Assembly (NCBI RefSeq): GCF_044324785.1
Contig: NZ_CP172127.1
Reading direction: 5' to 3' (one strand)
Length of the DNA stretch: 64,000 nt
From: Escherichia coli
GTDB taxonomy: Bacteria > Pseudomonadota > Gammaproteobacteria > Enterobacterales > Enterobacteriaceae
Positions 1 to 39,512 of this stretch are shown in pieces. The position numbers were made by a program, and so were the translations under genes. How positions within the stretch are numbered: the stretch's first letter is position 1; the number at the start of each line of letters is the position of its first letter. Under the pieces are notes generated by a model. The model saw only the letters and a program-made list of their open reading frames with translations. It was not told where the DNA came from and ran no database searches.

Positions 1-1
1 C

Positions 2-3000
2 GGTCTTGGCGTGATGACCCGCGGTGTGACCGATGACAGCGGTACCTTGCAGTTACAACATATATCGCCGGAACGTTCATACATTCTGGGTAAAGATGCT
101 GAAGGCGGCGTTTTTGTCTCCGAGAATTTTTTCTACGAAAGCGAAATCTACAACACCCGCTTGTATATCTTTACCGACCGCCCTCTGTATCGTGCAGGCG
201 ATCGTGTTGATGTCAAAGTGATGGGCCGCGAGTTCCACGACCCGTTGCATTCATCCCCCATCGTCAGCGCCCCGGCGAAGCTTTCAGTGCTGGACGCCAA
301 CGGCAGTCTGTTGCAAACCGTCAATGTCACGCTTGATGCGCGTAATGGCGGGCAGGGGAGTTTCCGCCTGCCAGAAAATGCCGTCGCCGGAGGTTATGAG
401 TTACGCCTGGCTTACCGCAAACAGGTCTATAGCAGCAGTTTTCGCGTGGCAAACTACATCAAGCCACATTTCGAGATTGGTTTAGCTCTCGACAAAAAAG
501 AGTTCAAAACAGGCGAAGCGGTCAGCGGCAAACTGCAACTGCTTTACCCGGATGGAGAGCCGGTAAAAGATGCCCGCGTGCAGTTAAGTTTGCGCGCTCA
601 GCAATTATCAATGGTCGGTAACGATTTGCGTTATGCCGGACGTTTCCCGGTGTCGCTGGAAGGCAGTGAAACGGTTTCCGACGATAATGGTCATGTGGCG
701 TTGAATCTCCCCGCCGCCGATAAACCGAGCCGTTATTTGTTAACCGTCTCCGCCAGTGACGGCGCGGCGTATCGAGTTACCACCACCAAAGAGATCCTCA
801 TTGAACGCGGTCTGGCGCATTACTCTTTAAGTACCGCCGCACAATACAGTAATAGCGGTGAATTGGTTGTGTTCCGTTATGCCGCGCTGGAATCTTCAAA
901 ACAGGTTCCTGTTACGTATGAATGGTTGCGTCTCGAAGACCGCACGAGCCACAGCGGAGATCTACCGTCTGGCGGCAAATCCTTTACCGTCAATTTCGAT
1001 AAACCTGGCAACTACAATCTGACATTACGCGATAAAGACGGCTTAATTCTCGCCGGGTTAAGCCATGCAGTCAGCGGTAAGGGCAGCACGTCGCATACTG
1101 GTACGGTAGATATCGTGGCAGATAAAACGCTGTACCAGCCTGGCGAAACCTCGAAGATGCTGATTACCTTCCCGGAGCCAATTGATGAAGCATTATTGAC
1201 GCTGGAACGCGATCGCATTGAACAGCAGTCGCTGCTATCGCATCCGGCAAACTGGCTGACGTTACAACGTTTAAACGATACCCAGTATGAAGCCCGCATA
1301 CCAGTGAGCAATTCCTTTGCGCCTAACATCACTTTTTCGGTGCTGTATACCCGTAACGGTCAGTACAGTTTTCAGAACGCCGGGATCAAAGTTGCCGTTC
1401 CCCAGCTGGATATCCGGGTGAAAACGGACAAAACCCATTACCAGCCTGGTGAACTGGTCAATGTCGAATTAACCTCGTCGCTGAAAGGTAAACCTGTTTC
1501 TGCGCAGCTAACGGTTGGTGTGGTCGATGAAATGATCTACGCGCTGCAACCGGAAATCGCGCCGAATATCGGCAAATTTTTCTATCCGCTGGGGCGTAAC
1601 AATGTGCGTACCAGCTCCAGTCTGTCGTTTATCAGCTACGACCAGGCGCTCTCCAGCGAGCCGGTTGCGCCTGGCGCGACTAACCGCAGCGAGCGGCGAG
1701 TAAAAATGCTTGAACGTCCACGGCGTGAAGAGGTGGATACCGCGGCATGGATGCCGTCACTCACAACCGATAAACAAGGCAAAGCGTATTTCACGTTCCT
1801 GATGCCTGATTCGTTAACCCGTTGGCGCATCACGGCACGTGGGATGAACGGCGACGGGCTGGTCGGGCAGGGGCGTGCTTATCTTCGTTCGGAAAAAAAT
1901 CTCTACATGAAGTGGAGTATGCCAACGGTGTATCGCATGGGCGACAAACCGGCGGCAGGACTGTTTATCTTCAGTCAGCAGGATAACGAACCGGTGGCGC
2001 TGGTGACTAAGTTTGCAGGCGACGAGATGCGCCAGACGCTGACACTGCACAAAGGGGCGAATTATATTTCGCTGGCGCAGAACATTCAGCAATCTGGCTT
2101 GTTAAGCGCAGAACTGCAACAAAATGGGCAAGTGCAGGACAGCATTAGCACAAAACTGTTTTTTGTGGATAACAGCTGGCCCGTTGAACAGCAGAAAAAT
2201 GTCATGCTTGGCGGTGGCGATAACGCGTTGATGTTGCCTGAGCAGGCGAGCAATATCCGGCTACAAAGTAGCGAAACGCCGCAGGAGATTTTCCGTAACA
2301 ATCTTGATGCGTTAGTCGATGAACCGTGGGGTGGGGTGATCAACACCGGTAGCCGTCTGATCCCGCTCAGTCTCACCTGGCGTTCACTTGCCGATCATCA
2401 AAGTGCCGCCGCTAACGACATTCGTCAGATGATTCAGGATAACCGTCTGCGGCTGATGCAACTGGCGGGGCCCGGAGCGCGCTTTACCTGGTGGGGTGAA
2501 GATGGCAATGGCGACGCCTTCCTGACGGCATGGGCATGGTACGCCGACTGGCAGGCCAGCCAGGCGCTCGGCGTAACGCAACAACCGGAATACTGGCAAC
2601 ATATGCTCGACAGTTATGCCGAGCAGACAGATAACATGCCGTTATTGCATCGGGCGCTGGTGCTGGCGTGGGCACAGGAGATGAATCTGCCGTGCAAAAC
2701 GTTGTTGAAAGGGTTGGATGAAGCTATCGCCCGGCGCGGAACTAAAACTGAAGATTTCTCTGAGGAAGACACCAGCGATATCAATGACAGCCTGATCCTC
2801 GATACACCGGAATCTCCACTGGCAGATGCGGTGGCAAACGTCTTAACCATGACGTTGCTGAAAAAAGCGCAGTTGAAGTCCACGGTGATGCCACAGGTTC
2901 AGCAATATGCGTGGGATAAAGCGGCAAACAGCAATCAGCCGCTGGCGCACACGGTTGTGCTGCTCAATAGCGGGGGCGACGCTACCCAGGCGGCTGCTAT

Positions 3001-3733
3001 TTTAAGTGGTTTGACCGCTGAGCAATCTACTATTGAGCGCGCGCTGGCCATGAACTGGCTGGCGAAATATATGGCGACAATGCCTCCGGTTGTGTTGCCT
3101 GCGCCTGCGGGCGCATGGGCCAAACATAAGTTAACTGGAGGGGGCGAATACTGGCGTTGGGTTGGTCAGGGCGTGCCGGACATTCTCTCTTTTGGTGACG
3201 AATTATCGCCGCAAAATGTGCAGGTCCGCTGGCGTGAACCGGCAAAAACGGCTCAACAAAGTAACATTCCGGTGACCGTTGAACGCCAGTTGTATCGGCT
3301 TATCCCTGGTGAAGAAGAGATGAGCTTTACTCTGCAACCGGTGACCAGCAATGAGATTGACAGCGATGCGCTGTATCTCGATGAAATCACGCTTACCAGC
3401 GAGCAGGATGCAGTTCTGCGCTACGGTCAGGTGGAAGTACCGCTCCCACCGGGAGCCGACGTTGAGCGCACAACATGGGGCATTTCGGTCAATAAACCCA
3501 ACGCCGCGAAACAGCAGGGGCAATTGCTGGAAAAAGCGCGTAATGAAATGGGCGAACTGGCCTATATGGTGCCGGTGAAAGAACTGACGGGAACGGTCAC
3601 TTTCCGCCATTTGCTGCGCTTCTCGCAAAAAGGGCAATTCGTTCTGCCTCCTGCTCGTTATGTGCGTTCCTATGCACCTGCACAGCAAAGTGTTGCGGCA
3701 GGGAGTGAATGGCCCGGGATGCAGGTGAAATAA
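2..3733 (+). CDS. yfaS: alpha-2-macroglobulin family protein, C-terminal ~1240 codons; 5' end lies upstream of the window
   Basis: Frame is open from the window edge to the stop at 3731-3733. Large secreted MG-domain-type protein, followed by the yfaQ and yfaP homologues in the order I recall from E. coli. No internal stop in the visible part. Confidence 0.75.
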
Positions 3734-5383
3734 GTGAACTGGCGCAGAATCGTCTGGCTATTGGCGTTGGTTACTCTGCCAACGCTTGCGGAGGAGACGC
3801 CGTTACAACTGGCACTGCGTGGTGCGCAGCACGATCAACTGTATCAGCTGTCGTCATCAGGCGTGACCAAAGCCTCGACATTACCTGACTCGCTCACCAC
3901 GCCGTTAGGGAGTTTGTGGAAACTGTATGTTTACGCCTGGCTGGAGGATACCCATCAACCGGAGCAGCCCTACCAGTGTCGCGGAAACTCCCCGGAAGAG
4001 GTTTATTGTTGTCAGGCTGGGGAGAGTATAACGCGCGATACCGCGCTGGTACGTTCCTGTGGGCTCTATTTTGCGCCGCAGCGGTTGCATATTGGCGCAG
4101 ATGTGTGGGGGCAATACTGGCAACAGCGTCAGGCACCTGCGTGGTTAGCGTCTCTTACTACGCTGAAGCCAGAAACCTCGGTAACGGTTAAATCGCTGCT
4201 TGATTCATTAGCGACGTTACCTGCGCAAAACAAAGCTCAGGAAGTCTTACTGGATGTGGTGCTGGACGAGGCGAAAATCGGTGTCGCATCCATGCTCGGT
4301 AGTCGGGTACGGGTGAAAACCTGGAGCTGGTTTGCCGATAATAAACAGGAAATCCGTCAGGGTGGTTTTGCCGGCTGGTTAACCGATGGTACACCGCTGT
4401 GGGTGACTGGCAGCGGCACCAGCAAAACGGTACTAACCCGTTATGCGACGGTGCTTAATCGAGTTTTGCCAGTGCCGACGCAGGTTGCCAGTGGGCAATG
4501 TGTAGAGGTGGAGCTGTTTGCCCGCTATCCGCTGAAGAAAATCACAGCGGAAAAGAGTACGACGGCAGTAAAACCCGGCGTACTTAATGGGCGCTATCGT
4601 GTGACGTTTACTAATGGTAACCACATTACGTTTGTCAGCCACGGTGAGACGACCTTACTGAGCGAAAAGGGCAAACTGAAATTGCAGTCGCATCTCGATC
4701 GTGAAGAGTACGTTGCCAGAGTTCTGGATCGCGAGGCGAAAAGTACGCCACCTGAGGCAGCGAAAGCCATGACCGTGGCGATTCGCACTTTTTTACAGCA
4801 AAACGCCAATCGGGAAGGCGATTGCCTGACCATCCCCGACAGCAGCGCCACGCAGCGTGTTTCTGCTTCGCCAGCTACCACGGGGGCGCGAACGATGACC
4901 GCCTGGACGCAGGATCTTATCTATGCGGGCGATCCGGTTCATTATCATGGCAGTCGCGCTACCGAAGGGACGCTTTCCTGGCGGCAAGCCACGGCCCAGG
5001 CGGGGCAGGGAGAGCGTTACGATCAGATACTCGCGTTTGCTTATCCCGACAATAGCCTTAGCCGCTGGGGAGCGCCACGCTCAACCTGCCAGTTATTACC
5101 CAAAGCGAAAGCCTGGCTGGCGAAAAAAATGCCGCAGTGGCGGCGTATGTTACAAGGCGAGATGGGGTACAACGAACCAGACGTGTTTGCGGTCTGTCGT
5201 TTAGTCTCAGGTTTCCCCTATACCGATCGGCAGCAGAAACGGCTGTTTATTCGTAACTTCTTTACGCTTCAGGATCGGCTGGATTTAACCCATGAGTATC
5301 TGCACCTGGCCTTTGATGGTTATCCCACCGGGCTTGATGAGAACTATATCGAAACGCTGACCCGACAATTATTAATGGACTAA
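3734..5383 (+). CDS. yfaQ: YfaQ-family protein of the alpha-2-macroglobulin operon (function unknown), 549 aa
   Basis: 549-aa ORF starting at a GTG immediately after the yfaS stop, with a hydrophobic signal-like N-terminus (MNWRRIVWLLALVTLPTLA). Size and position match yfaQ. Confidence 0.7.
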   Translation: MNWRRIVWLLALVTLPTLAEETPLQLALRGAQHDQLYQLSSSGVTKASTLPDSLTTPLGSLWKLYVYAWLEDTHQPEQPYQCRGNSPEEVYCCQAGESITRDTALVRSCGLYFAPQRLHIGADVWGQYWQQRQAPAWLASLTTLKPETSVTVKSLLDSLATLPAQNKAQEVLLDVVLDEAKIGVASMLGSRVRVKTWSWFADNKQEIRQGGFAGWLTDGTPLWVTGSGTSKTVLTRYATVLNRVLPVPTQVASGQCVEVELFARYPLKKITAEKSTTAVKPGVLNGRYRVTFTNGNHITFVSHGETTLLSEKGKLKLQSHLDREEYVARVLDREAKSTPPEAAKAMTVAIRTFLQQNANREGDCLTIPDSSATQRVSASPATTGARTMTAWTQDLIYAGDPVHYHGSRATEGTLSWRQATAQAGQGERYDQILAFAYPDNSLSRWGAPRSTCQLLPKAKAWLAKKMPQWRRMLQGEMGYNEPDVFAVCRLVSGFPYTDRQQKRLFIRNFFTLQDRLDLTHEYLHLAFDGYPTGLDENYIETLTRQLLMD

Positions 5384-5387
5384 TGCT

Positions 5388-6164
5388 ATGCGAAAGATTT
5401 TTCTTCCGTTGTTACTGGTGGCGCTTTCGCCTGTTGCCCATGGCGAAGGTGTGCAGGAAGTCGAGATTGATGCACCGCTCTCTGGCTGGCATCCGGCAGA
5501 GGGTGAAGATGCCAGTTTTTCACAATCGATCAATTACCCGGCGTCGTCCGTCAACATGGCAGATGATCAAAATATCTCAGCGCAGATCCGCGGCAAAATA
5601 AAGAATTATGCTGCGGCGGGTAAAGTTCAGCAGGGCCGGCTGGTGGTCAACGGTGCCAGTATGCCGCAGAGAATTGAATCCGATGGTTCTTTTGCGCGCC
5701 CTTATATTTTTACTGAAGGCAGCAACAGCGTGCAGGTCATCAGCCCGGATGGGCAAAGCCGACAAAAAATGCAGTTTTACTCAACGCCGGGTGCTGGAGT
5801 GATCCGCGCGCGTTTACGGCTGGTTCTCTCCTGGGATACGGACAATACCGACCTCGATCTTCACGTTGTCACACCTGATGGCGAACACGCTTGGTACGGT
5901 AACACCGTGCTGAAAAACAGTGGTGCACTGGATATGGATGTCACGACGGGGTATGGACCCGAGATTTTCGCCATGCCAGCGCCAGTTCACGGGCGCTATC
6001 AGGTGTATATCAACTACTATGGTGGGCGCAGCGAAACGGAATTGACGACCGCCCAACTGACGCTGATTACCGATGAAGGATCGGTCAATGAGAAACAGGA
6101 AACTTTCATTGTACCGATGCGTAATGCTGGCGAGTTGACGCTGGTGAAAAGTTTTGACTGGTGA
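5388..6164 (+). CDS. yfaP: YfaP-family secreted protein (function unknown), 258 aa
   Basis: 258-aa ORF with signal peptide (MRKIFLPLLLVALSPVAHG), 4 bp downstream of yfaQ. Size and synteny match yfaP. Confidence 0.7.
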   Translation: MRKIFLPLLLVALSPVAHGEGVQEVEIDAPLSGWHPAEGEDASFSQSINYPASSVNMADDQNISAQIRGKIKNYAAAGKVQQGRLVVNGASMPQRIESDGSFARPYIFTEGSNSVQVISPDGQSRQKMQFYSTPGAGVIRARLRLVLSWDTDNTDLDLHVVTPDGEHAWYGNTVLKNSGALDMDVTTGYGPEIFAMPAPVHGRYQVYINYYGGRSETELTTAQLTLITDEGSVNEKQETFIVPMRNAGELTLVKSFDW

Positions 6165-6438
6165 GCCATCCTTTCACACAACCTGGCTCTCTCTTTTTTC
6201 AGATAAGACTGCTGGGCGATCTGCCGACGCCAGGATATAACCATTAACAAGCGTCGGCAGATTGGTCATTTCTTGTTGTTCGTACGGAAAACTGTCCATT
6301 TACTCCGGCTTTCCTGATTAAGGCAATGGTTTCTAAGCGATACGCATTATTGCAATGGTGACAGAACATTGCGGTAACACGCTTTTACCGCTACCTTAAC
6401 CACACTCCATCGGTCACCTGAGGCGGAGCTTCGCCCCT

Positions 6439-9288: not shown

Positions 9289-9306
9289 GACGGATAAGGC
9301 GTTTAC
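9285..9306. repeat. Left half of a REP/palindromic unit (gtaggacggataaggcgtttac) interrupted by the IS
   Basis: REP-like sequence immediately after the rcsC stop. Its continuation (gccgcatccggca...) resumes after the IS at 10743. Confidence 0.6.
9303..9306. repeat. Target-site duplication TTAC (left copy)
   Basis: TTAC directly abuts the left IR and is repeated at 10739-10742 abutting the right IR. Confidence 0.7.
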
Positions 9307-9331
9307 TGAACTGCACCCCAAATGTTGGACA
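9307..9331. repeat. IS left terminal inverted repeat
   Basis: Begins TG...; 21 of 25 positions match the reverse complement of the right end. Confidence 0.75.
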
Positions 9332-9357
9332 TAATCTGACATCTGAAGGTGCAGTTT

Positions 9358-9879
9358 ATGAAACATTCATTTGAAGTAAAACTTGCCGCTGTAAATCATT
9401 ACCTGGCTGGTCATGCAGGCATCATTTCTACGGCAAAACTCTTTCAACTTTCTCACACCAGCCTCTCACACTGGATTAATCTTTTTCTTCTTCACGGTCC
9501 TCGGGCACTGGATTGCAGACACAAGCGTAGCTATTCTCCTGAAGATAAACTTTGCGTGGTTCTTTATGCTCTCGGGCATTCTGAGTCTCTACCCCGGGTA
9601 GCTGCCCGGTTTAACATTCCCAGCCACAACACGGTTAAAAACTGGATAAAAGGCTACCGCAAATCTGGTAATGAGGCCTTTATCAGGCGCAGGAAGGAGA
9701 AAAGCATGACCCGTTCTGATGATACCCATGAAAACGAGGCAAACATGACGCCGGAAGAGATGAAGAATGAGCTGCGTTATCTTCGCGCAGAAAATGCATA
9801 TCTGAAAGCCATGCAGGAGCATCTCCTGGAAAAAAAGCGCCAGGAGCTGGAGAAAAAACGAAAGTCATCCGGAGCCTGA
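9358..9879 (+). CDS. IS3-family transposase OrfA (HTH DNA-binding / leucine-zipper part)
   Basis: MKHSFEVKLAAVNHY... with a helix-turn-helix region and a C-terminal coiled-coil (LRYLRAENAYLKAMQEHLLEKKR) typical of IS3-family OrfA. The ORF track starts at GTG 9349; ATG at 9358 is the more likely start. Confidence 0.8.
   Translation: MKHSFEVKLAAVNHYLAGHAGIISTAKLFQLSHTSLSHWINLFLLHGPRALDCRHKRSYSPEDKLCVVLYALGHSESLPRVAARFNIPSHNTVKNWIKGYRKSGNEAFIRRRKEKSMTRSDDTHENEANMTPEEMKNELRYLRAENAYLKAMQEHLLEKKRQELEKKRKSSGA
9831..9837 (+). other. Candidate -1 programmed ribosomal frameshift heptamer A_AAA_AAG
   Basis: In the orfA frame the codons read gaA AAA AAG. orfB (stop at 10704-10706) is in the -1 frame relative to orfA, as in IS3-family OrfAB fusions. 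Confidence 0.6.
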
Positions 9880-9983
9880 GGTGCGGACACTGCCAGTCTG
9901 ACCTGTTAAAGGCTGCAGGGCTGGCCAGAAGCACGCTGTACTACCAGCTGTCACTGCAGAAGGCTAAGGACAAGTATGCTGAT

Positions 9984-10740
<757 letters not shown>

Positions 10741-10742
10741 AC

Positions 10743-10805
10743 GCCGCATCCGGCAATCGGTGCAAATGCCAGATAAGACACTAACGCGTCTTATCTGGCC
10801 TACAG
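10743..10805. repeat. Remainder of the REP/BIME palindromic units between rcsC and rcsB
   Basis: gccgcatccggcaatcggtgcaaatgccagataagacactaacgcgtcttatctggcctaca has the typical REP form (GCC-GGATG-CGGCG... / ...CTTATC-GGCCTAC). Confidence 0.6.
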
Positions 10806-35773: not shown

Positions 35774-36421
35774 TTATTGTGCCCCGCGTTGTTGCAGGAA
35801 CAGAATGGTGGCCGCCACGCGTGAGCGGACATTGAGTTTACGCAGCAGATTGCGAATGTGTACTTTTACTGTCTGCTCGGAAATATTCAACACCGAGGCA
35901 ATCTGTTTATTTGACAGCCCCTGTGCCAGCTCGTGCAGAACATCCAGTTCGCGCTCCGTCAGCACGCTGAAGGGATCTTCTTCCGCGCCAAACATTTCAC
36001 GTTCACGTAAGTACTGATTGACGCGTTCGCTAAAGACTTTGCTGCCTTTCGCTCCGGCACGAATCGCTTCCAGCAACACTTCCGGGTCGCTGTCTTTCAA
36101 CAGATAACCGTCTGCGCCTGCGTCTATCAGCGCAAAGACATCGCTGGAGGCATCGGATACGGTCAGGATAATAATTTGCGCGGTAACGCCATCCCTGCGC
36201 AAGGCATTGAGGGTATCCAGGCCACTCATACCTTTCATATTGAGATCCAGCAAGATCACGTCGATATCCAGTCTATTCGCCAGATCGATCGCGCTCGCGC
36301 CGTCGCCCGCTTCGGCGACCACTTCAAAGCCAGGATCAAGCTCCAGTAACTGACGAACACCGCGTCGCATAAGTGGATGATCATCCACAATCATCACCTG
36401 AAAAGGCGTTGCTTCAGGCAT
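35774..36421 (-). CDS. narP: Nitrate/nitrite response regulator NarP, 215 aa
   Basis: MPEATPFQVMIVDDHPLMRRGVRQLL... receiver with a LuxR-type HTH. Start set at MPEAT; the ORF track has 10 extra codons. Confidence 0.92.
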   Translation of the reverse strand: MPEATPFQVMIVDDHPLMRRGVRQLLELDPGFEVVAEAGDGASAIDLANRLDIDVILLDLNMKGMSGLDTLNALRRDGVTAQIIILTVSDASSDVFALIDAGADGYLLKDSDPEVLLEAIRAGAKGSKVFSERVNQYLREREMFGAEEDPFSVLTERELDVLHELAQGLSNKQIASVLNISEQTVKVHIRNLLRKLNVRSRVAATILFLQQRGAQ

Positions 36422-36741
36422 AGTAGTCTCCTGAGGTTTTATTAGAATCATTATGTTTGAGCGTAGCGTTGGTAACGCTACCAGGCGCGTGAATGTTACC
36501 CCATTTTATGTATGGACATGTAGTGAAAACTACAACCTTGTCGTTCGCTTTGGCATCATTTTCATTATAAAGACGGAATTTTGCATCAGCTTCTCATCAA
36601 GAAAAACAACTAAAAAATCAATCACAATACTTGTGCATTTCTTTAAACAGTTTTTAAAAAACTGACTCCGGGTATGGAGCTATGGGTATTTTCTTTACCC
36701 AATGCTTTTAACAGCAATTAATTTCATAGGATGAAAGCTCA

Positions 36742-39333
36742 ATGCATCAATCTGGTTCTGTTTCTCTTTGTCGTTCCGCAATATCTGTTCTGGTGGCTAC
36801 AGCGTTATATTCACCCATAGCATTGGCATCAACTGTTGAGTATGGTGAGACAGTTGATGGTGTTGTCCTGGAAAAAGATATCCAGCTGGTTTATGGGACC
36901 GCCAATAATACGAAAATCAATCCTGGCGGAGAACAGCATATAAAAGAATTTGGTGTAAGTAGTAATACTGAAATTAACGGAGGGTATCAGTACATTGAAA
37001 TGAATGGCACCGCAGAATACTCAGTATTAAATGACGGTTATCAAATTGTTCAAATGGGTGGCGCGGCAAACCAGACTACCCTCAATAATGGTGTGCTACA
37101 GGTTTATGGCGCAGCGAATGATCCCACGATTAAAGGCGGGCGCTTAATCGTTGAAAAAGATGGGATTACCGTCCTTGCCGCTATCGAAAAGGGAGGATTA
37201 CTGGAGGTTAAAGAGGGGGGATTAGCGATTGCGGTAGATCAGAAAGCAGGCGGTGCGATTAAAGCAAGCACGCGGGTCATGGAGGTATTCGGAACAAACC
37301 GTCTCGGTCAGTTCGAAATCAAGAATGGTATTGCTAACAATATGCTGTTGGAAAACGGCGGAAGTTTGCGAGTTGAAGAAAATGACTTCGCTTATAATAC
37401 CACTGTGGATAGTGGCGGCTTACTGGAGGTTATGGATGGCGGGACTGCAACTGGCGTTGATAAAAAAGCAGGCGGAAAATTAATTGTCTCAACGAATGCG
37501 CTGGAAGTGAGTGGTACAAACAGTAAAGGCCAATTTAGTATAAAAGATGGTGTGTCAAAAAATTATGAACTGGATGATGGTTCCGGGCTCATTGTTATGG
37601 AGGACACGCAGGCCATTGACACTATCCTTGATGAGCATGCCACTATGCAATCGCTGGGAAAGGATACTGGGACGAGAGTGCAGGCAAATGCGGTATATGA
37701 TCTCGGTCGATCAGATCAGAATGGAAGTATCACGTATTCCTCAAAAGCCATCTCTGAAAATATGGTTATCAACAATGGCCGCGCTAACGTCTGGGCTGGC
37801 ACAATGGTTAACGTTTCAGTCAGAGGGAATGATGGCATTCTTGAAGTCATGAAGCCGCAAATAAATTATGCGCCCGCAATGTTGGTGGGTAAGGTAGTGG
37901 TTTCTGAGGGCGCTTCTTTTAGAACGCATGGTGCCGTGGATACCAGCAAAGCGGATGTTTCGCTCGAAAATAGCGCATGGACCATCATTGCCGATATCAC
38001 TACGACGAACCAAAACACCCGCCTCAATATAGCCAACCTTGCGATGTCTGGCGCAAATGTGATTATGATGGCTGAGCCAGTGACTCGTTCATCTGTGACG
38101 GCAAGTGCGGAAAATTTCATTACGTTGACCACTAATACCCTGTCGGGAAACGGCAATTTTTATATGCGTACCGATATGGCCAATCATCAGAGCGATCAGC
38201 TCAACGTGGCCGGACAGGCAACAGGTGATTTCAAAATATTCGTGACGGACACCGGTGCCAGCCCGGCAGCAGGAGATAGCCTTACACTGGTAACAACGGG
38301 CGGCGGTGATGCTGCATTTACGTTGGGCAATGCCGGAGGCGTTGTTGATATCGGTACGTATGAATATACCTTGCTGGATAATGGCAACCATAGCTGGAGT
38401 TTGGCAGAGAATCGCGCGCAAATTACCCCTTCAACCACTGATGTGCTGAATATGGCGGCCGCACAACCGCTGGTATTTGATGCAGAACTGGACACCGTGC
38501 GTGAGCGTCTTGGTAGCGTAAAAGGCGTTAATTACGATACGGCGATGTGGAGTTCGGCAATTAACACCCGCAACAACGTGACCACTGATGCGGGAGCTGG
38601 CTTTGAGCAAACATTGACGGGGCTGACGCTCGGTATCGATAGCCGTTTCTCCCGTGAAGAAAGCAGCACAATTCGCGGCTTGTTCTTTGGTTACTCTCAT
38701 TCTGATATTGGTTTTGATCGCGGCGGCAAAGGCAATATTGATAGCTACACCTTGGGGGCTTATGCCGGTTGGGAGCATCAGAACGGTGCCTATGTTGATG
38801 GGGTGGTGAAAGTTGACCGTTTTGCCAACACCATCCATGGCAAGATGAGTAATGGGGCAACAGCGTTTGGCGATTACAATAGTAACGGCGCGGGTGCTCA
38901 TGTCGAGAGCGGGTTCCGTTGGGTTGACGGATTGTGGAGTGTTAGACCCTATCTCGCCTTTACCGGCTTTACCACAGATGGTCAGGACTACACGTTATCA
39001 AACGGCATGCGCGCGGATGTGGGAAATACCCGGATATTACGCGCTGAAGCGGGAACGGCGGTAAGCTATCACATGGACCTGCAAAACGGTACGACGTTGG
39101 AACCCTGGCTGAAAGCCGCCGTGCGTCAGGAATACGCCGATTCTAACCAGGTGAAAGTTAATGACGATGGCAAATTTAATAATGATGTGGCTGGAACCCG
39201 TGGCGTTTATCAGGCTGGGATAAGGTCATCGTTTACCCCGACGTTAAGCGGTCATTTGTCTGTCAGCTATGGCAATGGCGCAGGGGTAGAATCACCGTGG
39301 AATACTCAGGCGGGTGTGGTCTGGTCGTTCTGA
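36742..39333 (+). CDS. yejO: Putative autotransporter adhesin YejO, 863 aa, apparently intact
   Basis: Signal-like N-terminus, glycine/threonine-rich repetitive passenger domain, and a C-terminal beta-barrel translocator ending in the aromatic residue typical of outer-membrane proteins (...AGVVWSF). Sits between narP and proL as yejO does in E. coli. Confidence 0.8.
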   Translation: MHQSGSVSLCRSAISVLVATALYSPIALASTVEYGETVDGVVLEKDIQLVYGTANNTKINPGGEQHIKEFGVSSNTEINGGYQYIEMNGTAEYSVLNDGYQIVQMGGAANQTTLNNGVLQVYGAANDPTIKGGRLIVEKDGITVLAAIEKGGLLEVKEGGLAIAVDQKAGGAIKASTRVMEVFGTNRLGQFEIKNGIANNMLLENGGSLRVEENDFAYNTTVDSGGLLEVMDGGTATGVDKKAGGKLIVSTNALEVSGTNSKGQFSIKDGVSKNYELDDGSGLIVMEDTQAIDTILDEHATMQSLGKDTGTRVQANAVYDLGRSDQNGSITYSSKAISENMVINNGRANVWAGTMVNVSVRGNDGILEVMKPQINYAPAMLVGKVVVSEGASFRTHGAVDTSKADVSLENSAWTIIADITTTNQNTRLNIANLAMSGANVIMMAEPVTRSSVTASAENFITLTTNTLSGNGNFYMRTDMANHQSDQLNVAGQATGDFKIFVTDTGASPAAGDSLTLVTTGGGDAAFTLGNAGGVVDIGTYEYTLLDNGNHSWSLAENRAQITPSTTDVLNMAAAQPLVFDAELDTVRERLGSVKGVNYDTAMWSSAINTRNNVTTDAGAGFEQTLTGLTLGIDSRFSREESSTIRGLFFGYSHSDIGFDRGGKGNIDSYTLGAYAGWEHQNGAYVDGVVKVDRFANTIHGKMSNGATAFGDYNSNGAGAHVESGFRWVDGLWSVRPYLAFTGFTTDGQDYTLSNGMRADVGNTRILRAEAGTAVSYHMDLQNGTTLEPWLKAAVRQEYADSNQVKVNDDGKFNNDVAGTRGVYQAGIRSSFTPTLSGHLSVSYGNGAGVESPWNTQAGVVWSF

Positions 39334-39400
39334 TAACAGACAATAAACAGGCCGTGATGTGTCGCGGTCTGTTTATCGAATTAAATGCAGATATAAAAAA

Positions 39401-39428
39401 ACCAACCGTAAAGGTTGGTTTTTTTTTG
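39401..39428. terminator. Bidirectional intrinsic terminator between yejO and proL
   Basis: Hairpin AACCAACC-gtaa-AGGTTGGTT flanked by an A-run upstream and a T-run downstream. Confidence 0.7.
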
Positions 39429-39435
39429 GGATTTT

Positions 39436-39512
39436 TGGTCGGCACGAGAGGATTTGAACCTCCGACCCCCGACACCCCATGACGGTGCGCTACCAGGCTG
39501 CGCTACGTGCCG
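39436..39512 (-). tRNA. proL: tRNA-Pro (anticodon GGG)
   Basis: The reverse complement reads CGGCACGTAGCGCAGCCTGGTAGCGCACCGTCATGGGGTGTCGGGGGTCGGAGGTTCAAATCCTCTCGTGCCGACCA: a 77-nt cloverleaf with encoded CCA. Confidence 0.9.

Follow-up and report, generated by a model that had tools for sequence, protein, structure and literature searches.

Autotransporters related to YejO

Antigen 43 (Ag43, Flu/Cah; 7koh, 7ko9 and 4kh3) is the best match to the passenger of YejO, in structure as well as in sequence. The two proteins have AIDA-type strand-loop-strand repeats, a β-solenoid, a pertactin-like junction and a type Va barrel in common, but share only ~25 % amino acid identity. Ag43 expression is toggled via Dam and OxyR at GATC sites, whereas a reading of the sequence upstream of yejO revealed no GATC sites. 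YejO also resembles AIDA-I and TibA (4mee, 4q1q), glycosylated adhesins of diarrhoeagenic E. coli carrying the same Pfam AIDA domains. The resemblance includes three stretches of YejO that match the heptosyltransferase-target repeat TIGR04415 and a transport-unit fold common to both. However, YejO has far fewer repeats and its gene, flanked by narP and proL, has no adjoining heptosyltransferase gene. In Bordetella, the β-domain of BrkA superposes on the barrel of YejO (TM 0.90), and Vag8 and P.69 align to its pertactin domain and barrel. These proteins differ from YejO in that they come from another genus, share 16-23 % identity and have passengers with unrelated functions (serum resistance, C1-inhibitor binding). 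Membership of the Ag43/Cah family was rejected, YejO scoring 130.5 bits against the equivalog model NF033177 of NCBIfam with its cutoff of 1200, which marks the likeness to Ag43 as one of fold. Membership of the AIDA-I family was rejected likewise (NF033176, 70.2 bits, cutoff 1200).

For yejO, disruption by IS5 in K-12 and uneven intactness among pathotypes have been described before (PMC11005336, PMC5654935 and, by way of a passage in PMC3426408, Wells et al. 2010); PMC11677980 likewise reports the disruption in K-12. The literature searched yielded no experimental work on intact YejO.

The yejO locus

The gene described here lies in a stretch of 64,000 nucleotides of E. coli DNA (contig NZ_CP172127.1), referred to below as the window. 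The locus comprises the following features:

36452..36741, + strand: narP-yejO intergenic region, 290 bp, AT-rich (GC profile), 99.3 % identical to K-12
36742..39333, + strand: yejO coding sequence, 863 codons and TGA, intact (ORF listing, Pfam, TIGR01414)
39343..39376, + strand: hairpin with a 15-bp stem, from 10 nt past the yejO stop codon (RNA fold)
39395..39425, no strand assigned: hairpin with A-tract, 13-bp stem and U-tract, AAAAAAACCAACCGTAAAGGTTGGTTTTTTTTT, the second stem in the RNA fold
39436..39512, - strand: proL, tRNA-Pro(GGG), 3' end toward yejO, without inserted element in the window (ARAGORN)

The initial annotation had described a single 863-codon ORF, and the ORF listing of the window indeed holds one of 863 amino acids at these coordinates on the + strand, starting with ATG and encoding a protein that ends in ...AGVVWSF. 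An in-frame TAG five codons upstream makes this ATG the earliest possible start, and an AGGA motif is located 10 nt 5' of it. A run of 863 random codons would be free of stop codons with a chance of ~1e-18. The only tRNA that ARAGORN reports for the window is tRNA-Pro(GGG), 102 nt from the yejO stop codon and close to the 100 bp first estimated. The gene order ccmH-narP-yejO-proL-yejM is the same as in K-12.

The intergenic region presumably contains the promoter and 5' UTR of yejO and, on the opposite strand, the narP promoter. GC content is 0.37-0.38 over 36400-37000, compared to 0.53-0.58 in the flanking genes, and the 5' half of yejO is also lower in GC than its neighbours. At the threshold of the scan no sigma-70 consensus match was found upstream of yejO on the + strand, by a method that also overlooked an obvious terminator hairpin later found by folding. 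The promoter has been termed "uncharacterized PyejO" (PMC11677980). Downstream, RNA folding of 39334-39435 gave a minimum free energy of -38.1 kcal/mol, against -17.2 +/- 2.9 for shuffled sequences (z = -7.3). The hairpin at 39395..39425 looks like a bidirectional intrinsic terminator that would serve yejO on the + strand and proL on the - strand. The presence of terminator-like hairpins directly 3' of the stop codon suggests that yejO is a self-contained transcription unit.

Identity with yejO of K-12

The window gene shares 97.6 % nucleotide identity with K-12 yejO and, judged by its sequence and gene order, is the orthologue of this pseudogene (b2190). The name YejO, proposed at the outset, agrees with the RefSeq naming of matching genes ("autotransporter YejO") and with the public record of exactly this 863-aa protein as "autotransporter YejO [Escherichia coli]", present on 298 contigs. 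The protein also falls within a 90 % cluster of 16,859 members that includes YejO-named proteins.

36805..36808, + strand: TTAT, the insertion site of IS5 (IS5K) in K-12, unbroken in the window

The initial annotation had described the K-12 gene as interrupted, and alignment bears this out by placing IS5 between codons 22 and 23, in the part coding for the signal peptide, with a TTAT duplication on either side. K-12 reads ...GCGTTAT, followed by IS5 and then TTATATTCACCC, where the window at the same point reads GCGTTATATTCACCC. The BLAST alignment fell into two pieces, query positions 1-67 and 64-2592, overlapping by the 4 nt TTAT. When K-12 yejO was rebuilt in silico without IS5, no further ORF defect appeared. 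With its signal-peptide coding region split by IS5, K-12 is unable to make YejO, while the window strain, free of this lesion, has the coding capacity for the protein. From its sequence this strain would be able to encode a surface protein that is absent from K-12, and it may display it.

Domain organization of the predicted protein

The coding sequence divides into the following parts, all on the + strand:

36742..36828, + strand: predicted Sec-type signal peptide, residues 1-29 (n-region MHQSGSVSLCR, h-region SAISVLVATALYSPI, c-region ALA)
36829..38421, + strand: passenger, residues 30-560, predicted right-handed β-solenoid (AF2, Foldseek, phmmer)
37138..37581, + strand: two tandem 74-aa repeats, approximately residues 133-206 and 207-280 (two Pfam AIDA domains)
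38032..38406, + strand: pertactin-like junction (autochaperone), residues 431-555 (Pfam PF03212)
38428..38517, + strand: linker α-helix, residues 563-592 (AF2)
38539..39330, + strand: predicted 12-strand outer-membrane β-barrel (translocator), residues 600-863 (PF03797, TIGR01414, AF2, Foldseek)

By heuristic n/h/c and AXA criteria rather than a trained predictor, the N-terminus, which the initial annotation had called signal-like, is a canonical signal peptide, so that the lack of a functional leader, which would have spoken against the initial reading, finds no support in this prediction. Its hydrophobic core ISVLVATAL has a mean Kyte-Doolittle value of 2.5 over 9 residues and is preceded by R11. 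Cleavage is predicted at ALA|ST (residues 27-31), after A29, in accordance with the -3/-1 rule, and an AxA motif is kept at this position in a consensus built from 64 homologues. Residues 1-27 have AF2 pLDDT values below 50, as expected of a flexible leader.

The passenger is rich in Gly (12.4 %), Ala (9.2 %), Thr (9.0 %), Val (8.7 %) and Asn (8.7 %), in line with its earlier description as Gly/Thr/Asn-rich. The "VFGTN/SGTN" blocks pointed out before are real: they occur at residues 181 (EVFGTN) and 255 (EVSGTN), with a spacing of exactly 74 residues, within the two tandem repeat units. When the protein was aligned with itself, shifted by 74 residues, a match of 91 aa with 45 % identity appeared (E 6e-24). 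Pfam AIDA (PF16168) matches two stretches and the heptosyltransferase-target strand-loop-strand repeat TIGR04415 the three mentioned above. A natural allele of 789 aa is short of exactly one repeat unit (222 bp, in frame). A repeat search at the DNA level inside the ORF returned nothing more than short chance pairs; the units are visible at the protein level alone because they have diverged to 45 % amino acid identity. The AF2 model, with a mean pLDDT of 85.7, consists of a solenoid, a helix and a barrel, and shows short regular strands over residues 30-561 with pLDDT mostly above 80. The β-helix-like passenger first suggested from the repeats is accordingly predicted as a right-handed β-solenoid. 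In a Foldseek search it matched Ag43 (7koh and 7ko9; E 7e-26, 25 % identity, target-normalised TM 0.57-0.59), and phmmer against the PDB returned Ag43, Vag8, TibA, BrkA and pertactin.

The junction aligns with positions 2-120 of the 121-position Pertactin profile PF03212 (E 1.3e-45). It holds most of the invariant residues of the family (L467, G469, G471, G505, F526, G538, Y542 and W552), and the window YejO as a whole retains 16 of 16 invariant and 38 of 39 near-invariant residues. The helix formed by residues 563-592 is the only long one in the AF2 model and directly precedes barrel strand 1. Pre-cleavage structures of the EspP and BrkA β-domains, which were matched, have the same helix arrangement, and by analogy the helix probably runs through the barrel pore.

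PF03797 (Autotransporter) covers residues 602-841 (E 6e-46) and TIGR01414 residues 456-863 (E 4.8e-111); TIGR01414 and each of the three Pfam autotransporter domains score well beyond their cutoffs. In the AF2 model the barrel is built of long antiparallel strands with pLDDT above 90. Its Foldseek matches are the BrkA β-domain (3qq2, at the TM given above, rmsd 2.7-3.2 A), EspP, Hbp and NalP (TM 0.73-0.84), and AIDA-I too. A barrel ending in VVWSF had been claimed, and the 12 predicted strands do end in an aromatic β-signal, with F at -1, W at -3 and V at -5. As far as sequence and model can tell, none of the parts of a classical type Va autotransporter is missing. Those of the AIDA-I type are found as well, namely two PF16168 domains, PF03212 and a right-handed β-helix that matches Ag43.

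Ancestry of yejO and integration at proL

Since yejO adjoins a tRNA gene, it was considered whether it is the horizontally acquired cargo of a tRNA-associated island at proL. The lower GC content of its 5' half would fit such an origin, and in other strains mobile elements do integrate at proL. Alignments of some genomes with the window stop at query position 3039 or 3055, within the tRNA 3' end, and these genomes have, between yejO and proL, elements that resemble phage satellites or bear an integrase; proL is also where the S. flexneri 1c gtrIC prophage integrates (PMC4924310). These elements however sit between yejO and the tRNA, which places yejO outside them. In the window no integrase or tRNA-end direct repeat is found beside yejO. 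Furthermore, of 5,426 complete genomes 5,421 carry at least part of yejO, on the chromosome every time, and the order ccmH-narP-yejO-proL-yejM is kept even where the flanking core genes have no more than 88-92 % identity. An island origin is thereby largely refuted and is considered highly improbable. The link between the tRNA and strain variability, proposed in the initial annotation, did not hold: the proximity is incidental. From the conserved gene order yejO is judged ancestral at its present locus in Escherichia, and its variation from strain to strain is decay in place, not gain of an island.

Intact and inactivated alleles

YejO of other E. coli has the narP/proL locus, the length of 863 aa and the domain order in common with the window allele. 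Nucleotide identity to other sampled E. coli alleles is 97.1-98.4 %, and 99.9 % to strain N3; 10-28 amino acids differ from the sampled intact alleles, mostly in the passenger. Full-length orthologues count 863 aa in E. coli, and those of divergent Escherichia 862-865 aa, which disposes of the concern that the window ORF might be truncated. An N-terminal defect suspected in ETEC1702, where PGAP reports a "shorter" YejO, was rejected, the full 863-codon ORF being intact.

A survey of intactness across E. coli, as had been advised, was carried out by sampling. An intact 863-aa ORF is estimated to occur in ~40-45 % of complete E. coli genomes, the remainder having varied lesions. More than half of the genomes sampled carry an inactivated yejO, and the gene is therefore dispensable. 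At least eight distinct lesions were encountered in this small sample: insertions of IS5, IS50R and a Mu-like prophage; two 1-nt deletions, W789*, E797* and a change of the ATG start to ATT; and K68* with large deletions. W789* is a recurrent and widespread allele, and ST131 strain JJ1886 has a large-deletion remnant. The window allele lacks the K-12 IS5 as well as the W789*, E797*, ATT-start, frameshift and deletion lesions of other strains. A 20-mer common to all sampled yejO alleles had one chance match, in a Schlesneria MAG, in a species-representative collection; the E. coli representative genome may belong to the 3'-deletion lineage.

With so many different lesions in a small sample, the window allele might be a still-unbroken relic, intact by luck and nonfunctional, of a gene in decay throughout E. 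coli. Its nearest relative, strain N3, is annotated as frameshifted, but this concerns a G5-to-G4 homopolymer change and may be an assembly error. Intact alleles show dN/dS values of 0.08-0.26 overall and 0.02-0.13 in the barrel, and 0.21 against an orthologue at dS 0.81, indicating maintenance of yejO in the lineages that have kept it. Such strong purifying selection, in the barrel above all, argues against a relic, as does the retention of every invariant family residue. Among 14 genomes sampled at random, 4 share one identical intact protein (WP_000554226.1), and yejO of O157:H7 is intact (WP_000554210.1). A chance survivor is thus regarded as improbable. The gene might be under antagonistic, niche-dependent selection, a reading put forward because purifying selection on intact alleles is found alongside many independent lesions. 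YejO would then be an "anti-virulence" or immune-exposed surface protein, the loss of which is adaptive in some lineages; this is a speculative, rather unlikely explanation.

Expression and possible role of YejO

The window very probably holds an intact allele of an ancestral Escherichia chromosomal gene encoding a classical type Va, AIDA-I/Ag43-like monomeric autotransporter. Following established autotransporter biology, YejO would be exported by Sec, with removal of the leader after Ala29, and BAM would insert the barrel with the linker helix in its pore. The passenger would be threaded outward, folding from the autochaperone end, and would remain at the cell surface. There it would most likely act as an adhesin or self-association factor like Ag43, a putative role suggested by analogy from the fold resemblance at 25 % identity.

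AT-rich upstream DNA in E. coli often accompanies silencing. The intact ORF may thus be cryptic, silent under ordinary conditions, for instance if nucleoid proteins silence the AT-rich 5' region, in which case display would be no more than in K-12. The low GC content around the start codon, the outcome of the sigma-70 scan and the description of the promoter as uncharacterised are consistent with this. A literature search combining yejO and H-NS returned nothing relevant. K-12 yejO is among the least-detected transcripts (PMC10392735), but these data come from the copy disrupted by IS5. Silence in the laboratory would also be compatible with induction in the host, and the low dN/dS values, even at dS 0.81, argue that the protein is made and important in some natural settings. 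On balance, silence under ordinary conditions is a serious possibility that falls somewhat short of an even chance.

The gene, its disruption in K-12 and its uneven intactness are on record and the exact protein is public, and the significance beyond sound annotation is small. K-12 is the exception here: about four in ten of the complete E. coli genomes have the coding capacity for full-length YejO. The intact window allele is usable material for simple expression and aggregation work. If niche-dependent selection does act on yejO, this allele, from a rarely sampled lineage, would be a natural reference.

The yejO gene and its genomic context

The ORF and its surroundings in the window are as follows.

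36742-39333 (+): yejO, a single ORF of 863 codons with an ATG start
ccmH and narP (-): neighbours upstream of yejO
39436-39512 (-): tRNA-Pro(GGG), proL, the only tRNA gene in the 64-kb window
proL (-) and yejM (-): neighbours downstream of yejO

An ORF listing of the window confirmed the single 863-codon frame described in the initial annotation. It ends in ...AGVVWSF, and the probability of a stop-free run of this length arising by chance is ~1e-18. An AGGA motif lies 10 nt before the ATG, which is the first possible start because an in-frame TAG is located 5 codons upstream. The gene order ccmH/narP/yejO/proL/yejM is shared by K-12 and all E. coli genomes inspected. A match of some extent to the ORF was found in 5,421 of 5,426 complete E. 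coli genomes, on the chromosome every time, and at least 80 % of the ORF in one place in 4,281 of them. RefSeq names the matching gene "yejO: autotransporter YejO". The exact 863-aa protein is public under the YejO name (UniParc UPI0005A87D67, seen on 298 contigs). At 90 % identity it belongs to a cluster of 16,859 member sequences. The gene, its K-12 lesion, its patchy intactness and the exact protein were all previously known or deposited, and the core interpretation of the initial annotation is supported.

Protein anatomy and structural similarity

The domain assignments of YejO are typical of an autotransporter.

AIDA (Pfam): two stretches, E 2e-51
Pertactin (Pfam): residues 431-555, E 1e-45
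Autotransporter beta-domain (Pfam): residues 602-841, E 6e-46
TIGR01414 autotransporter barrel (NCBIfam): residues 456-863, E 5e-111
TIGR04415 strand-loop-strand repeat (NCBIfam): three copies

The N-terminus, described earlier as signal-like, has the properties of a putative signal peptide: a basic R11, a hydrophobic core (ISVLVATAL, mean Kyte-Doolittle value 2.5) and a predicted cleavage site ALA|ST satisfying the -3/-1 rule, with the AxA motif kept at this position across a 64-sequence family alignment. The passenger (residues 30-560) is indeed rich in Gly (12.4 %), Thr (9.0 %) and Asn (8.7 %). The recurring VFGTN/SGTN blocks were also recovered, as EVFGTN (residue 181) and EVSGTN (residue 255), each inside one of two tandem 74-residue units (45 % identity over 91 aa, E 6e-24 in self-comparison). 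An AlphaFold2 model built on the family alignment (mean pLDDT 85.7) agrees with the beta-helix-like passenger and beta-barrel translocator proposed before: a disordered stretch (residues 1-27) is followed by a regular beta-solenoid (residues 30-561), one long helix spans residues 563-592, and residues 600-862 form long antiparallel strands, counted as 12 barrel strands.

Foldseek searches against the PDB gave E. coli antigen 43 (Ag43; 7koh) as best match for the passenger (E 7e-26, 25 % identity) and the Bordetella BrkA beta-domain for the barrel (TM 0.90, rmsd ~3 Å), followed by the translocators of EspP, Hbp, AIDA-I and NalP. A PDB sequence search, returning Ag43, Vag8, TibA, BrkA and pertactin, agrees with this. 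YejO scored far under the cutoffs of the NCBIfam equivalogs for Ag43/Cah, AIDA-I and BafA. The family consensus residue is present at 16 of 16 invariant and 38 of 39 near-invariant positions, and the window YejO was shown to hold the full set of type Va autotransporter sequence and fold elements undamaged.

Inactivation of yejO in K-12 and other E. coli

The interruption of yejO in K-12, as given in the initial annotation, was borne out when the two genes were aligned. In MG1655 the gene is split, and PGAP annotates a 69-nt stub, an IS5 transposase and a yejO "missing N-terminus". Read side by side with the window, IS5 lies after ORF nucleotide 67 (codon 22 plus one base; equivalent to window 36805-36808), in the hydrophobic core of the signal peptide, with a TTAT duplication on either side. 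Taking the IS out in silico leaves a K-12 ORF without any further defect.

The state of yejO was surveyed in 60 genomes taken at even spacing down the BLAST ranking of complete E. coli genomes.

State of yejO in the sampled genomes
Full-length yejO DNA: 44/60
In-frame variant of 2,370 bp: 3/60
Large-deletion remnants: 12/60
Truncated by a Mu-like prophage: 1/60

The 2,370-bp variant (~5 % of the sampled genomes) is shorter by precisely one AIDA repeat unit of 74 aa (222 bp, in frame) and codes for a 789-aa protein. In the copy of strain AR24.2b (locus L005) the missing unit corresponds to window 37243-37464, and the junction lies in a short AAAGCAGGCGG motif common to both sides. The annotation treats this variant as an intact protein (WP_000554212.1). 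In strain STEC388 (locus L007) yejO ends after 231 bp at the insertion point of a prophage whose genes include Mu-like ones (Mor activator, Gp27-family, Ash, Icd-like). K68* is present as well in both remnants examined, which come from ST131 strain JJ1886 and CSF isolate N41.

Judged from the BLAST table alone, four of the 44 full-length copies have IS insertions (IS5 in three K-12 derivatives, IS50R in one), two have 1-nt deletions and in two others the alignment starts only at ORF nucleotide 4; one of the latter, EC11, combines an ATG-to-ATT start change with W789*. Of the remaining 2,592-bp copies 14 were sampled regardless of state. The 863-codon ORF was intact in ten, four of which encode the identical protein WP_000554226.1, while three carry W789* (TGG to TGA) and one E797*; either stop removes barrel strands 9-12. 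W789* is a recurrent pseudogene allele, found in four sampled genomes overall (loci L003, L009, L011 and L015), in two of them together with the ATG-to-ATT change (window equivalents 39106-39108 and 36742-36744, respectively). This allele accounts for the many 771-aa YejO entries (residues 19-788) in protein databases, a truncated form that also heads the YejO-like matches in a 50 %-identity representative library. By extrapolation, a gene for full-length YejO is expected in ~40-45 % of complete E. coli genomes (rough range 30-55 %).

The O157:H7 gene is intact. According to Wells et al. 2010, as cited in PMC3426408, YejO is present in commensal and diarrhoeagenic genomes and truncated in all uropathogenic genomes. 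YejO is also reported to be missing from ST131 (PMC5654935). The intactness pattern is already published. Strain N3, the closest relative, has a yejO 99.9 % identical to that of the window and annotated as frameshifted; its lesion, G5 to G4 at codon 671, may be an assembly error.

Selection on intact alleles

Given so many inactivated copies, the window allele might be regarded as an unbroken relic. Nei-Gojobori comparisons with seven intact E. coli alleles argue against this: dN/dS is 0.08-0.26 overall, 0.02-0.13 for the barrel and 0.08-0.40 for the passenger. Comparison with a divergent orthologue (dS 0.81) gave a dN/dS of 0.21. These ratios indicate that yejO is under purifying selection where it is retained. 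Such selection on intact alleles may stand in contrast to the many independent inactivations.

proL and the origin of yejO

The tRNA gene lies 102 nt past the yejO stop codon, close to the 100 bp noted initially. proL does serve as an integration site: some genomes show an alignment break within the tRNA 3' end, and in these a phage-satellite-like or integrase-bearing element lies between yejO and proL. Strains 7_12_15B and SX23 (loci L027 and L028) carry different elements at the proL 3' end, on the yejO side. One, which resembles a capsid-encoding phage satellite, codes for a phage major capsid protein, a small terminase, a RepA helicase and Icd-like and Ash proteins; the other has two tyrosine recombinases and a DUF6387 gene. 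A Shigella flexneri prophage is also inserted at this site (PMC4924310).

The implied link of yejO with surface factors borne at tRNA loci was not supported, as the gene lies outside the proL-integrated elements and the order ccmF-dsbE-ccmH/narP/yejO/tRNA-Pro/yejM/yejL/yejK is found in two more distant genomes as well. In one, the flanking genes are 96-98 % and yejO 93.6 % identical to the window; in the other the flanks are 88-92 %, the passenger 75 % and the barrel 87 % identical. This conserved order indicates that yejO is ancestral at the locus in Escherichia. Its variability is decay in place, and its association with the tRNA gene is incidental. The lower GC content of the 5' half of yejO (0.37-0.47) could stem from acquisition long ago or from biased amino-acid usage in the repeats.

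Export, expression and possible function

From knowledge of the family, YejO would be exported by Sec and cleaved after Ala29, its barrel would be placed in the membrane by BAM with the linker helix in the pore, and the passenger would be secreted C-to-N. The pertactin-like junction would nucleate passenger folding, finally exposing the beta-helix at the cell surface. The balance tips slightly towards a role as adhesin or self-association factor, by analogy with Ag43, in view of the fold similarity at 25 % identity and the AIDA repeats in common.

Expression of Ag43 is switched on and off via Dam and OxyR acting at GATC sites. Reading of the region upstream of yejO revealed no GATC sites, and a promoter scan detected no consensus sigma-70 promoter for the gene. 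Transcripts of K-12 yejO are seldom observed (PMC10392735), although the K-12 copy is disrupted.

RNA folding of the yejO-proL gap (39334-39435) revealed two strong hairpins (z = -7.3 vs shuffles).

39343-39376: hairpin 1 downstream of yejO, 15-bp stem
39395-39425: hairpin 2 downstream of yejO, A7-stem-U9

The second, missed by a consensus terminator scan and recovered by RNA folding, looks like a bidirectional intrinsic terminator common to yejO and proL.

Other observations in the window

An IS1397 copy (IS3-family, 1,455 bp, 99.3 % identical to the copy of strain 300033) occupies 9291-10745, directly past the rcsC stop codon between the convergent rcsC and rcsB. REP/PU palindromes are the known target preference of IS1397, and this copy, flanked by GGATAAGGCGTTTAC on one side and TTACGCCGCATCCGGC on the other, looks to split such a palindrome. 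The ato operon (atoSCDAEB, ~7.4 kb in strain 300033) is wholly missing. The yfaS 3' part, yfaQ and yfaP make up positions 1-6164, and a junction of ~195 bp (6165-6359) separates yfaP from rcsC. N3 has the opposite arrangement, with ato present, the yfa genes absent and gyrA adjoining atoB.

The lineage of the source strain is poorly represented among the 5,426 complete RefSeq E. coli genomes: judged by per-record identity bands, only 1-2 of these are at least 99 % identical across the 25-kb flanks. For window 1-25000 the top-ranked record has 97.8 % identity and shows rearrangements, and N3, from a human rectal swab, is nearest for 10739-64000 (99.3-99.5 %).
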